A DNA stretch of 24,000 nt from Alteribacillus bidgolensis (GTDB taxonomy: Bacteria > Bacillota > Bacilli > Bacillales > Marinococcaceae), in assembly GCF_002886255.1 (NCBI RefSeq), contig NZ_KZ614149.1, positions 476,646 through 500,645 of the forward strand. The letters are read 5' to 3'. The position numbers and the translations under genes were made by a program. Position 1 is the first letter of the stretch; each line of letters starts with the position of its first letter. The notes below the pieces were generated by a model that was given only the letters and a program-made list of their open reading frames with translations, ran no database searches and was not told where the DNA came from. Below, one piece after another: positions 20,381 to 23,777 of this stretch.

Positions 20381-20394
20381 GAACGTTGTTAGAA

Positions 20395-20427
20395 GGAGCC
20401 GCCCTAATAAAGGACGGCTTCCTTTTT
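20395..20427. terminator. Terminator hairpin between convergent spo0A and the small - strand ORF
   Basis: ggagccgccc pairs with ggacggcttcc (about 9 bp plus one mismatch), then T5 on the + strand. On the - strand the same hairpin follows the 59-aa ORF stop. Confidence 0.7.
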
Positions 20428-20455
20428 GTGAGCATATAAGAGTAAGCCCGAAAGA

Positions 20456-20635
20456 TTAATTTTGATCAGAAATGTATGACTCAAAAAGCCGTGAAACCAT
20501 GGAAGAACTTTCTGTATAAGGTCGTAATTGATTAATTCTTTTAGACGAAGGTTCGTATTGAATCACATATTGTTCACCATTATACGATGCCAGATACATA
20601 TCAAACCCATGTCTAGATTCAATAAACTGAAACAA
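20456..20635 (-). CDS. Hypothetical small protein (59 aa), absent from the ORF track (below 60 aa)
   Basis: - strand TTG start (20635) lies 6 nt after a strong RBS AAGGGGGA (20649-20642). Hand translation gives MFQFIESRHGFDMYLASYNGEQYVIQYEPSSKRINQLRPYTESSSMVSRLFESYISDQN with a TAA stop at 20458-20456. Composition is protein-like; no family recognised. Confidence 0.4.
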   Translation of the reverse strand: MFQFIESRHGFDMYLASYNGEQYVIQYEPSSKRINQLRPYTESSSMVSRLFESYISDQN

Positions 20636-20922
20636 TTTGGTTCCCCCTTATCATTTTTCGTTGGTACTTCCACTTTACAGTTTAAATTCCTCGAAAAAAA
20701 TTTTTTCTTTATAATTATCTTTTTCCTCATTCCTATATCTATGCATGTAATCCCTCCGATTTGGACCATACTAGAAAAAGGTATTAGAAAAACTTGGCTT
20801 GGCACCACGGTCTGTGGCACGAAATTGGTACGTCCTGCATGCTGGAAGCCTTAGTCTTTTCTTATACTTGATTCCTTTAGAAAAGTCACTTTCCTAAAGT
20901 ATAAAAAAGGGGTGAAAGCAGC

Positions 20923-22035
20923 GTGGATAAGATTCAAGGAAAAGCGCACTTTCATGAAAAAACAAAAATTCTTGCAAATCAAATTGAAAAAAAACAAATT
21001 GCTGTAATTGATCATGAAGACATAGATCCGATTGCTGCAGAAAGTTTAATAAAAAAGAATGTCAAAGCCGTCATAAATTTAAAACGTTCTATGAGCGGAG
21101 AATTTTTTCATGAAGGTGTCAAAAGGCTGTTAGAGCAAAACATAAAGGTATTTGATATTCATCCAAATAGTGATATAGGTAAATGGATACATGGACGAGA
21201 GATTGAGATTAATCATAATTATTTGTTTGTGATTTATTCTCAAAAAAAATATGATGTTGGACCATTAAAAGAATACAATATGCCATTTGTACGCTTATTA
21301 GAAGAAAAAGGAAAGAAAAATCTTCCTATTACTTTTGAGAAATTTAGCAGCAATAGTATATCGTACGCAGAAAAAGATTTAATACAGCTGTTAGAATGTT
21401 GGAAAAAATGGGAACATGGATCAGCTTTACAAGGAAAAGATGTGTTAATTGTTATTCGGGGAACTGATTATGAAAAGGACTTAGATTGCGTGAAAAAATA
21501 CTTTATAAGAAATGGTAATAATATTTCATTGATAGCAGTTGATGGAGCAGCTAATGAGATGCTTCATAAGGATATGCATCCTGATTACATTATAGGAGAC
21601 ATGGACTCTGTTAGCAGTAAAGTATTACAATGCGGAGCCAAGCTTATTGTGCATCAAGGCGCAAAAGGTCATTCACCGGGTATGCAAAGGGTAAAGGATC
21701 ATCAATTATCAGCTAATACTGTAACGTTTATCGGTTTGAGTGAAGATGCTGCCATTGCTTTTGCTTTAAAAGAAGGAGCGAAAAAAATTTATTTGCTTGG
21801 CGGTCATCGTGATATGGAAGAATATCTCAGCAAAGGAAGAAAGGGCATGGGGTCCTCTTTGTTAATAAAAATGCTTGCAGGCAGTAAAATTATTGATTTA
21901 AAAGGGATACATCACCTTTATGATAATAGCAGAAAATCACAGTCTTTATTTTGGCATTTTAGAAAAATATATCATTCTTTACCATTTTTACGTGGTTCGA
22001 AATCAGAAAAAGAAATGAGGGAAATGAAAGCGTGA
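20923..22035 (+). CDS. steA: SteA-like protein (thiamine-pyrophosphokinase-like domain; putative cytokinetic-ring protein family)
   Basis: 370 aa. The N-terminus (G.A......TK.L...I...QIAVIDHEDIDPIAAESLIKKNVKAVINLKRSMSGEF) resembles actinobacterial SteA/Rv1697 as I remember it. A central TPK-like motif is present: LIAVDGAANEML...PDYIIGDMDSVS. GTG start after AAGGGGTGA. Confidence 0.65.
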   Translation: MDKIQGKAHFHEKTKILANQIEKKQIAVIDHEDIDPIAAESLIKKNVKAVINLKRSMSGEFFHEGVKRLLEQNIKVFDIHPNSDIGKWIHGREIEINHNYLFVIYSQKKYDVGPLKEYNMPFVRLLEEKGKKNLPITFEKFSSNSISYAEKDLIQLLECWKKWEHGSALQGKDVLIVIRGTDYEKDLDCVKKYFIRNGNNISLIAVDGAANEMLHKDMHPDYIIGDMDSVSSKVLQCGAKLIVHQGAKGHSPGMQRVKDHQLSANTVTFIGLSEDAAIAFALKEGAKKIYLLGGHRDMEEYLSKGRKGMGSSLLIKMLAGSKIIDLKGIHHLYDNSRKSQSLFWHFRKIYHSLPFLRGSKSEKEMREMKA

Positions 22036-22703
22036 AAACAAGTGTTATTATTCCAGCTTATAATGAAGAGCGACATTTAAAATCAACATTGCAAACTCTA
22101 CGCAAAGCTGGCTGGGCAAACGAATTAATTGGAGTAAACGATGGGAGTTCTGATTCTACTGGAAGAATTATGGAAAAATATTGTGATGTATCGATTTCAT
22201 TTATTAAAAATCATGGAAAAACAGCTGCAGCAAAAGCAGGATGGTTAGCCAGCAAAGGAGAGTTTATTGTAATTTTAGATGCAGATTTAAGAGACAGTGC
22301 AATATACGGCAGCGAATTATTATATCCATTGGAATCAAATGAAGCTGACTTAGTTATTGGTACAGTAATGGGAAGTGGAAAAAATGGTTTTGGACTTGTT
22401 AAGAGAAGGGTACAGCGTCTTATTCATAGAAGAAGTGGTCTGCTTTTACAAATGCCATTGTCAGGACAAAGAGCTTTTCGAAGAAAACATATTGAACATT
22501 ATCATCAATTACAGGCAGAAGGTTTCGGTCTAGAGACGATGATGACATTAAAAGCTGTAGAAGAAGGATTTAGAATTAAAGAAGTAGAAGTGCCATTTGT
22601 ACATGACGGCAAAGGATGGGGAATTCAAGGTATGTGTCACCGTGCCAAGCAATGGCTGGAGGTGGAAAGGTGCCTATGGAAATATGGAAAATCATACTCT
22701 TAA
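22032..22703 (+). CDS. Family 2 glycosyltransferase (polyprenyl-phosphate sugar synthase-like)
   Basis: 223 aa with the GT-A signatures VIIPAYNEE, NDGSSDST and ILDADL. GTGA start/stop overlap with the steA-like gene. Confidence 0.85.
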   Translation: MKTSVIIPAYNEERHLKSTLQTLRKAGWANELIGVNDGSSDSTGRIMEKYCDVSISFIKNHGKTAAAKAGWLASKGEFIVILDADLRDSAIYGSELLYPLESNEADLVIGTVMGSGKNGFGLVKRRVQRLIHRRSGLLLQMPLSGQRAFRRKHIEHYHQLQAEGFGLETMMTLKAVEEGFRIKEVEVPFVHDGKGWGIQGMCHRAKQWLEVERCLWKYGKSYS

Positions 22704-23485
22704 GTGCAATGGTGCCGATCTTTTGGCCTGTATTGAGAAACAGCTCTGTAAAATTTGGGTGGACGGCTGTTAATTATAAAAATATGTACATTCCATTTAC
22801 ACTCGGAATTGTTTTGTTACTTTTTGTTTTTAATTTTATTCTTTTATGGCCACCCGATCATTTATTAGCTTTTATGGTATATATAGTAGGAATTTGGACC
22901 GCCGGATGGATTGATGATGTACGTGGAAGTGATTATCCAAAAGGAATAAAAGGACATATGTATTTTTTTATAAAAAAAGGAGAGTGGACGACAGGGCTTA
23001 CAAAAATTGTAATTATTGTCATTTCTGCAAGTGTCAGTCTCCTTTTAGCAGAAGCAACGATGCAAATAGGTACGGTGATTACATTTATGTTGTTCGTATT
23101 ATCGCCACATGTGTGTAATTCTCTCGATACACGACCACTTAGAGTTTGGAAATGGGTAAGCATTCATGTTTTAATGTTGCTTATATTTCTGTCTGTAAGG
23201 CCGGTGCCAGGCATGCTTTTCTATATAGTGGTGGCAATGGGGGTATGGGGGTATTTAGAAATAACGAAAAAAGGAATGCTTGGAGATAATGGAGCTGCTT
23301 TGGCCGGAGGAATCATAGCATGGGTGGGAATGCAGTTTTTTCCCTTTAGTATTCAACTTTTTTTTATGGGCATTCTTGTTGGTATTACTTATTTAGCAGA
23401 AAAAATTTCGATTCATGCTTTTATTGAAAAAGTTCATATTTTGAAGGAAATTGATCATTTGGGGAGAAGGGAAAGGATGGAATAA
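22676..23485 (+). CDS. Short, divergent polyprenyl-phosphate N-acetylhexosamine-1-phosphate transferase-like membrane protein (MraY/WecA superfamily, GT4)
   Basis: Polytopic membrane protein with GWIDDVRG (the DD motif), NSLD and MLGDNGAALAGG (compare GDxGSxxLG). ATG 22676 behind GGAGGTGG is preferred; the ORF-track start at 22616 overlaps the GT2 gene by 88 nt. Confidence 0.6.
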   Translation: MEIWKIILLSAMVPIFWPVLRNSSVKFGWTAVNYKNMYIPFTLGIVLLLFVFNFILLWPPDHLLAFMVYIVGIWTAGWIDDVRGSDYPKGIKGHMYFFIKKGEWTTGLTKIVIIVISASVSLLLAEATMQIGTVITFMLFVLSPHVCNSLDTRPLRVWKWVSIHVLMLLIFLSVRPVPGMLFYIVVAMGVWGYLEITKKGMLGDNGAALAGGIIAWVGMQFFPFSIQLFFMGILVGITYLAEKISIHAFIEKVHILKEIDHLGRRERME

Positions 23486-23497
23486 AATGGAATAATA

Positions 23498-23528
23498 AAA
23501 GGGCTGACTCTAAATAGTCAACCTTTTA
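23498..23528. terminator. Bidirectional terminator between convergent genes
   Basis: ggctgact (23502-09) pairs with agtcaacc (23516-23) over 8 bp with one mismatch, flanked by an A-run 5' and a T-run 3'. It abuts the stop of the - strand gene. Confidence 0.6.
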
Positions 23529-23777
23529 CTTGCTGCTCGGGCCCGTTTTTGATTGATACCGAATGCCTACTTTTTTATTTTTACGATCCCGGTAAAAAAC
23601 AAAACCGGAAATAAACCAAATCCCAAAAACAAGCATTAACAAACCAGTTAAAAATTGCAGCCATAAAAAGGGAAAAGGAGGCTGTAAAATTTGAAAAAGC
23701 ATATCCCTCATTAACTTTATGCCTAAGGCTGCCATTATACCAGGAATAACTAAAATTAATAACGCAATCAGCCGCAT
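23526..23777 (-). CDS. Small two-TM membrane protein (DUF2627/YqzF-like from memory)
   Basis: 83 aa: MRLIALLILVIPGIMAALGIKLMRD..., with two hydrophobic helices and a basic tail. RBS AGGAGAG lies upstream on the - strand. Confidence 0.6.
   Translation of the reverse strand: MRLIALLILVIPGIMAALGIKLMRDMLFQILQPPFPFLWLQFLTGLLMLVFGIWFISGFVFYRDRKNKKVGIRYQSKTGPSSK

Follow-up and report, generated by a model that had tools for sequence, protein, structure and literature searches.

SteA and SteB together make a transmembrane complex at the septum, which both positions and activates RipA/RipC (PMC6705760, PMC12977500), and in Mycobacterium tuberculosis SteAB controls the main cell-separation hydrolase. 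What, then, is the role of a steA-like gene that stands a short way downstream of spo0A in Alteribacillus bidgolensis and overlaps the gene of a family 2 glycosyltransferase (GT2), which in turn overlaps the gene of a membrane protein with MraY/WecA-type motifs? The question was addressed in a 24,000-nt stretch of this genome (G000:C1:476646-500645; genome size 4.7 Mb), referred to throughout as the window. The closest named relatives of the window proteins belong to Alteribacillus and Salibacterium. A sequence-only reading of the window had proposed that the three genes form a module that builds a polyprenyl-phosphate-linked sugar under a division-associated regulator or scaffold. Taken as a whole, that interpretation was supported by the searches described here.

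The answer favoured here, and held with moderate confidence, is that the trio would be a module expressed in the forespore that makes a polyprenyl-(pyro)phosphate-linked sugar, SteA being its nucleotide-binding partner. Outside the mycolata, steA was almost always found joined to the gene of a miniature MraY-like enzyme, usually together with a glycosyltransferase or a flippase gene, and this linkage supplies a concrete candidate for what SteA senses. The literature so far knows the cluster only as SteAB or as an essential cluster with no assigned pathway. New in the window copy are the lack of SteB, an anchorless SteA and a predicted promoter of forespore type.

SteA and its two transferase-like partners

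Three overlapping open reading frames were present head to tail on the + strand, as first described (Table 1). Gene 1 matched the NCBIfam SteA model NF040608 with 298 bits (E 9e-89; cut-off 150) and PF04263 with 36 bits (threshold 30.7), and its residues 22-333 aligned to the crystal cores of SteA (PDB 9hmy, E 7e-25; 9hmz, E 3e-16). The motif VDGAAN...IIGDMDSVS, cited earlier as marking a thiamine pyrophosphokinase (TPK)-like core, was found. By these profile and structure matches gene 1 is a true SteA, consisting of the cytoplasmic core with its TPK-like nucleotide pocket, and the family identity proposed for it from sequence held.

The NF040608 alignment covered profile positions 1-338 of 369. 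No match to PF12555 (SteA-like_C) was obtained with the window SteA, and its tail contains no hydrophobic segment. Given where the profile match ends and the non-hydrophobic tail, the SteA membrane anchor is missing. When the whole genome (99.94% complete) was searched, no SteB/MctB (PF11382) match was obtained at E <= 10. SteB-less loci with an anchorless SteA were also found in Alteribacillus, Salibacterium, Thalassorhabdus, Alkalihalophilus, Alteribacter and Halalkalibacter; Anaerobacillus has no SteB either, yet it retains a hydrophobic SteA tail. Loci with a SteB/MctB gene between steA and GT2 keep the SteA anchor, and those without SteB have usually lost it, as in the window. Without an anchor, the scaffold role in division is not simply transferable to the window protein.

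Compared with the SteA-SteB systems of Corynebacterium glutamicum (Cg1603/Cg1604) and M. tuberculosis (Rv1697/Rv1698-MctB), the window shares the cytoplasmic core, the TPK-like pocket motif and the ancient neighbourhood tlyA-(nadK/argR)-recN-...-steA. It differs in having neither SteB nor the SteA transmembrane helix, in an operon whose two transferases are missing from the mycolata studied so far, and in a predicted promoter that is of forespore rather than vegetative type.

Gene 2 matched PF00535 with 79.7 bits (threshold 23.3; E 3e-22), in agreement with its earlier description as a small GT-A family 2 glycosyltransferase. Its best matches among PDB sequences were ArnC (2e-10), DPMS and GtrB. 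An AlphaFold2 model (pLDDT 91.6) was compared with known structures by Foldseek, where ArnC was best by E-value (1e-14) and soluble GpgS was best by TM-score (0.74-0.80). The GT-A fold and the DxD motif are shared with ArnC, GtrB, DPMS and GpgS; the C-terminal transmembrane helices of the first three are not, and the model ends in a single long terminal helix (198-222) with no membrane span. Scores stayed far below all NCBIfam equivalog cut-offs, the best (AglJ, ArnC and PpgS among them) being 68, 45 and 40 bits against 325, 529 and 370. Invariant residues include D83/D85 (DxD), G145-Q146-R147 and H203-R204. Two subfamily-specific invariant motifs, PLSGQRA and HRGKQ, set gene 2 apart as a separate subfamily. 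On sequence and model together, gene 2 is a soluble GT-A family 2 transferase that appears closest to polyprenyl-phosphate glycosyltransferases and GpgS.

The identity of gene 3 was settled by a fold search and a wider profile after single-family searches had failed. No Pfam or NCBIfam match was obtained for the protein, and a narrow profile built from its 25 closest homologues gave no match when compared with PDB sequences. The expected MraY/WecA-type motifs were found (WIDD, N..D and MLGDNGA). When the AlphaFold2 model (pLDDT 91.1) was searched by Foldseek, the top 25 hits were all MraY or DPAGT1 (probability 1.0, TM-score 0.50-0.59), the next hit following at E 0.4. Alignment to the MraY of the same genome with hhalign was full-length, at low probability, and paired WIDD with FLDD, N..D with NLTD, MLGDNGA with FMGDTGS and AEKIS with AETLS; the TagO-like PNPT of the genome gave a spurious C-terminal match alone. 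In a 47-member family profile D80, D81, N148, D151, P154 and R156 were invariant and D204 was present in at least 90% of members; D80/D81 and D204 correspond to the catalytic Asp residues of the superfamily, the DD pair and the Asp of GDxGS. This profile matched canonical PF00953 genes of other genomes (1e-8 to 3e-11). The Thermacetogenium orthologue passes PF00953 itself (31.6 bits; threshold 27), and many other orthologues carry the domain.

Because of the fold matches, the MraY alignment, the family profile and the PF00953-positive orthologues, gene 3 is assigned to the PNPT superfamily (MraY/WecA/GPT fold), in which it is, by sequence and model, a shortened and diverged member. The proposed kinship with MraY/WecA thus rests on the fold, the profile and intermediate orthologues; the Pfam family PF00953 itself misses the window copy. 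Fold and motif order (DD, NxxD, GDxG and, in helix 9, AE..S) are those of MraY, WecA/TagO and GPT/DPAGT1. In contrast to these proteins, gene 3 is about 90 residues shorter and stops after helix 9, ending about 25 residues past AEKIS, so that the nucleotide-sugar recognition loop (HHH in MraY) and the last helix of the ten-helix fold are absent. In the NxxNxxDGxDGL motif N148 and D151 are retained, the first Asn is His in the clade and the second Asp is Pro154, so that DGxDGL reads DTRPLR. The family also differs from the rest of the superfamily in never standing alone in a wall-polymer locus and in being tied to steA. The window copy is the most diverged PNPT of the cluster.

That the trio might be a decaying remnant was considered and rejected: none of the three frames is broken, and the catalytic residues do not vary among Alteribacillus, Salibacterium, Anaerobacillus, Alkalihalophilus and Halalkalibacter.

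Inheritance of the cluster across genomes

A set of 401 genomes sampled across the class was surveyed. SteA scored above the cut-off in 113 and a strong PNPT-like match was obtained in 113; both were present in 112, and in the two genomes with SteA or PNPT alone the gene was at a contig end. The steA and PNPT genes were neighbours in all loci inspected. Spo0A was present in 335/401 genomes. The SteA carriers that were checked were all Spo0A-positive, and SteA was found in 0/20 Spo0A-negative genomes among those listed by name. The cluster has been lost altogether in many spore-forming Bacillaceae. In SteA loci from related families, the order steA-(steB)-GT2-PNPT was kept in 39 of 40, most of them with dxs-tlyA-argR-recN-spoIVB-spo0A upstream, as in the window, and a convergent DUF2627 gene downstream. 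The cluster also extends to clostridial lineages: Thermacetogenium, Natroniella and Anaerosolibacter carry tlyA-nadK-argR-recN-spoIVB-spo0A-steA-steB-GT2-PNPT.

For a cross-phylum scan, loci were collected with the PNPT profile from one genome per species (80 loci) and annotated with local hidden Markov models. The steA gene lay just upstream of PNPT in 74/80, and the co-occurrence in other genomes that the sequence-only reading had anticipated was thereby extended across phyla. GT2-PNPT followed steA(-steB) in 40 loci, from Bacillota, one Rubrobacteraceae and one Chthonomonadaceae. A further 34 loci, all high-G+C (33 Actinomycetota and one Armatimonadota), had steA-steB-PNPT with no space for a GT2 gene; recN was upstream in most of these and tlyA usually too. 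Five loci had PNPT alone (three of them on short contigs) and one was ambiguous. The other two of the five, in Phycicoccus elongatus and a Slackia metagenome-assembled genome, had full flanks and no steA.

The actinobacterial order tlyA-nadK-recN-steA, given in the earlier reading, was confirmed in Arcanobacterium, where all genes were checked against Pfam (FtsJ/S4, NAD kinase, RecN, SteA with SteA-like_C, MctB, the PNPT-like protein and a MurJ-family flippase), and was seen in about 30 other Actinomycetota loci. In 26 of the 34 high-G+C loci (e.g. L132:6775-8364) the gene directly after PNPT, and in the same orientation, was a MurJ-family (PF03023) gene; the Arcanobacterium flippase matched PF03023 with 125 bits. 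No other observation hints as strongly as this neighbour that the PNPT product would be a lipid-linked sugar for export. Published work has noted that steAB lies downstream of spo0A in some Bacillota (PMC12977500). A steA-linked glycosyltransferase is mentioned in neither PMC6705760 nor PMC12977500, and the MraY-like gene is not mentioned in PMC12977500.

Judged by co-inheritance and by this gene order, which lies far beyond chance, the steA-GT2-PNPT trio is a unit. The constant core of what would be an ancient envelope cluster appears to be SteA and the short PNPT; GT2 was probably an addition made in Bacillota and in a small number of deep lineages.

A different division of labour within the trio would be a split polyprenyl-phosphate glycosyltransferase. 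GT2 would then be the sole catalyst, giving a polyprenyl-monophosphate sugar in the way of ArnC, GtrB and DPMS, and the PNPT-like protein would be an inactive anchor or a subunit that presents the lipid phosphate, in the manner in which DPM3/DPM2 serve human DPM1, which has no transmembrane helices. Such a split fits a gene 2 that best matches ArnC, DPMS and GtrB yet is without their transmembrane helices, and a gene 3 protein that is without the nucleotide-sugar loop and last helix and fails PF00953. It also fits the arrangement of the GT2 and PNPT genes: they overlap in the window and in its close relatives, and at most other loci they overlap or lie end to end. However, the 34 high-G+C loci have the PNPT-like gene with steA-steB and no GT2, which points to a role of its own for PNPT, and the Asp residues that bind Mg2+ and phosphate vary little or not at all between phyla, which is hard to square with a mere anchor. 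We regard the split arrangement as unlikely and keep the module with a catalytic PNPT as the preferred reading.

Some isolated relatives of the cluster genes were also encountered. In the family of the window's genome, a diverged SteA-like gene (G328, L060:7683-8708; 97 bits, below the cut-off) has a weak MptE-like match and adjoins DUF2627, with no GT2 or PNPT gene there; it may be a leftover once its partners were lost. Another isolated gene (G040, L077:7953-8834; 83 bits, no Pfam match), coding for a 294-aa protein related to the short PNPT, has no steA nearby and is flanked by a class IV aminotransferase gene and an extracytoplasmic function (ECF) sigma factor gene. Downstream of the cluster, clostridial-type loci (L074-L076) have DUF3866, NUDIX and spoIIM genes, an M20-type peptidase gene also follows it in Thermacetogenium and Natroniella, and an XerD-like integrase gene follows in Thermacetogenium. 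NUDIX and xerD genes presumably also lie downstream of steAB in M. tuberculosis, which would lengthen the ancient synteny to the right.

The steA leader and a predicted forespore promoter

Upstream of steA, a block running from TATGCATGTAA to TTGGACCATACTA was invariant in an alignment of four Alteribacillus/Salibacterium species, with variable flanks. It conforms to the pattern GHATR-N17-19-CATnnTA, which we take to be equal to the published sigmaG consensus. The pattern stood before steA in 18 of 45 loci (0.5 in shuffles), as a perfect motif with the canonical 17-18 spacer in 15 (0.3 in shuffles). Within 1.55 Mb of locus DNA it occurred just 44 times, and its enrichment ahead of Bacilli steA genes was at least 30-fold. 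None of the actinobacterial loci had the motif and, one weak match aside, neither did about 36 clostridial-type loci. A control on spoIVB upstream regions failed and was replaced by a whole-genome motif scan, in which the motif preceded gpr, spoVAA, two gerA genes, sspI, fin, a lonB-type protease gene and a ClpP-like gene. By the sigmaF/sigmaG regulons of Bacillus subtilis, these are hallmark forespore genes.

Because the motif is conserved, enriched, placed before forespore genes and missing from clostridial and actinobacterial loci, the operon is probably part of the forespore programme in Bacilli, and the block would work as its promoter. The window copy adds to the evidence for such membership, as far as a promoter motif can indicate it. 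To our knowledge, no dedicated lipid-linked-sugar enzyme is known in the forespore programme.

Between the predicted promoter and the ribosome-binding site of steA lies a G+C-richer insertion (Table 1) that was absent in three close relatives, where the alignment has a gap. Copies of 36-62 nt from its 3' half, with 87-95% identity, were found at several other sites in the genome, and the insertion looks like a short dispersed repeat. A TGGCAC island in the leader had invited a sigma-54 reading, which was set aside: the island, with its TGGCAC pair, is inside the insertion, is missing in relatives and consists in part of a dispersed repeat. An Rfam search of the steA leader gave no match.

A related cluster has been studied in Clostridioides difficile. 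The genes CDR20291_1053-1057, with products of 373, 291, 230, 274 and 355 aa, are essential and without an assigned pathway; knock-down gave chained, short, swollen and phase-bright cells, a phenotype resembling what that study obtained with teichoic-acid and elongation genes (PMC12157513). Like the window, this cluster has a pyrophosphokinase-like protein (373 aa), a GT2 (230 aa) and a 'glycosyl transferase family protein' (274 aa); unlike the window, it has a 291-aa exported protein (SteB) and a DUF3866 gene. Peptostreptococcaceae loci with steA-steB-GT2-PNPT after spo0A support the match. By annotation, sizes, order and these loci, CDR20291_1053-1057 is likely the counterpart of the window cluster. 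Since the likely counterpart is essential with no pathway assigned, the chemistry is of interest as a drug target. Essentiality in the window genome itself is unlikely, because many Bacillaceae are without the cluster.

The timing could be vegetative: with the same chemistry, the module would act at the division septum of growing cells and the sigmaG/F-like motif would not be its main promoter. The requirement for the likely counterpart in vegetative growth of C. difficile (PMC12157513) and the septal position of SteAB in C. glutamicum (PMC6705760) would be in keeping with this, as would the 19-nt spacer in the window clade and a spo0A adjacency that reflects inherited gene order common to non-sporulating Actinomycetota. 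It is countered by the invariance of the motif in four species and its enrichment before Bacilli steA, by its presence before hallmark forespore genes in the window genome, and by its absence from those loci whose role in growing cells is known or expected. Loss of the cluster in many spore-forming Bacillaceae likewise fits a dispensable, non-vegetative role in Bacilli. On balance vegetative timing is considered quite unlikely, and forespore timing is retained in the preferred reading.

Proposed mechanism and borders of the operon

In the module as envisaged, the miniature PNPT (D80/D81/D151/D204) would bind polyprenyl phosphate and Mg2+ at the inner membrane face and move sugar-1-phosphate from a nucleotide sugar onto the polyprenyl phosphate. 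GT2, having no transmembrane helix, would dock on it and either add a second sugar or directly glycosylate the lipid phosphate. SteA would hold the nucleotide product or substrate and, in contact with the enzymes, act as regulatory or organising subunit of the pair. Nucleotide binding is attributed to SteA because its pocket resembles the phosphonucleotide site of TPK, as it does that of CstII, and because UDP and GDP stabilise the C. glutamicum protein (PMC12977500). In most other lineages SteA also spans the membrane and controls a wall hydrolase via SteB; in the Alteribacillus-type lineage SteB and the SteA anchor are gone, leaving the cytoplasmic and putatively enzymatic part. The window holds a natural minimal version, in which the putative enzymatic core is set apart from the arm that controls the hydrolase. 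With a sigmaG/F-type promoter before the operon in Bacilli, the lipid-linked sugar would be made in the forespore, for assembly of the spore envelope on the germ-cell-wall side.

The same SteA ligand data could be read in terms of a sensor, in which the PNPT-like protein would bind the lipid carrier or precursor without turnover, SteA would bind UDP/GDP-type nucleotides, and precursor supply would be reported to wall remodelling with no dedicated glycan being made. In Actinobacteria SteA acts as a regulator, with a ligand that seems to be nucleotide-like (PMC12977500), the PNPT is truncated, and in Bacillota no polymerase or ligase gene is linked. Yet the linked glycosyltransferase with its conserved DxD and, in Actinomycetota, the MurJ-type flippase point to product flux, and the window has lost the output arm (SteB and the SteA anchor) and kept the enzyme-like parts. 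A pure sensor is therefore judged improbable, and a product-forming module is preferred.

A wider synthesis is offered more tentatively, and we consider it doubtful as a whole. SteA and the miniature PNPT may be the core of an undescribed lipid-linked glycan pathway older than the split between Actinomycetota and Bacillota, with a dedicated MurJ-type flippase in the former and the GT2 extension in the latter. The SteA ligand would be a nucleotide or nucleotide sugar of the pathway. In Bacilli the pathway would have been rewired to sigmaG/F for the spore envelope, and the window copy would show the enzymatic core working without the hydrolase-control arm.

A number of observations weigh against a forespore glycan module in the window. 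Gene 3 gave no PF00953 match, at the protein level or when the whole genome was searched in six frames at E <= 10. This failure, together with the truncated loop and last helix and the Pro in place of the second Asp of DGxDG, implies that the protein may be non-catalytic. Gene 2 is as near to soluble GpgS as to lipid-phosphate glycosyltransferases, and no flippase, polymerase or ligase is encoded beside the window operon. Promoter function of the upstream block is predicted from a consensus match; its spacer in the window clade is 19 nt, where 17-18 is usual, and the spoIVB upstream regions used as positive control showed the motif in 1/26. The C. difficile cluster is required for vegetative growth, not sporulation (PMC12157513). 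Finally, C. glutamicum SteA requires its own membrane helix, the cytoplasmic domain alone being diffuse and non-functional (PMC6705760), and the anchorless window SteA may by the same token do something else.

Positions of the operon and of the features at its borders are collected in Table 1.

Table 1. Operon genes, leader elements and bordering features in the window.
Feature	Position	Strand	Remarks
spo0A intrinsic terminator hairpin	20391..20428	+	followed by UUUUUGU; RNA fold -19.8 kcal/mol, z -3.4 vs shuffles
59-aa open reading frame (LFQFIESRHGFDMYLASYNGEQYVIQYEPSS...)	20456-20635	-	divergent from steA
Predicted sigmaG/sigmaF-like promoter	20743..20773	+	GCATG, 19 nt, CATACTA
steA leader insertion	20780..20895	+	~115 nt, G+C-richer; between predicted promoter and steA ribosome-binding site
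steA (gene 1)	20923-22035	+	370 aa; GTG start
GT2 gene (gene 2)	22032-22703	+	223 aa; GTG start; GTGA overlap with the steA TGA stop at 22032-22035
PNPT-like membrane protein gene (gene 3)	22676-23485 (open frame 22616-23485)	+	269 aa; 28-nt overlap with the GT2 gene
Hairpin common to the operon and the convergent DUF2627 gene	23502..23523		8-bp stem, 4 G-C pairs
DUF2627 membrane-protein gene	23526-23777	-	convergent to the operon

The likeliest start of the PNPT-like gene is the ATG 10 nt downstream of GGAGGTGG; the resulting MEIW residues are the N-terminal start in homologues as well. The identical 28-nt overlap was annotated by gene callers in two Alteribacillus genomes, and the three-gene order is also kept in a Salibacterium genome.

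The operon had been placed directly downstream of spo0A. Downstream it is, but the two do not adjoin: between them lie 540 bp that contain the spo0A terminator and, on the opposite strand, a small conserved gene. The terminator marks the upstream boundary, parting spo0A from the steA operon. The small opposite-strand frame, to which no Pfam family was assigned, is highly conserved in Alteribacillus persepolensis and recognisable in Salibacterium salarium, whose annotation gives it as a gene of 64 aa.

On the right, the hairpin shared with the DUF2627 gene is likely the 3' end of the operon; its T-run is clear on the - strand and is merely TTTT on the + strand. The DUF2627 gene holds the same convergent position in >25 Bacilli loci, and on this account it gives the cluster a stable right-hand border.

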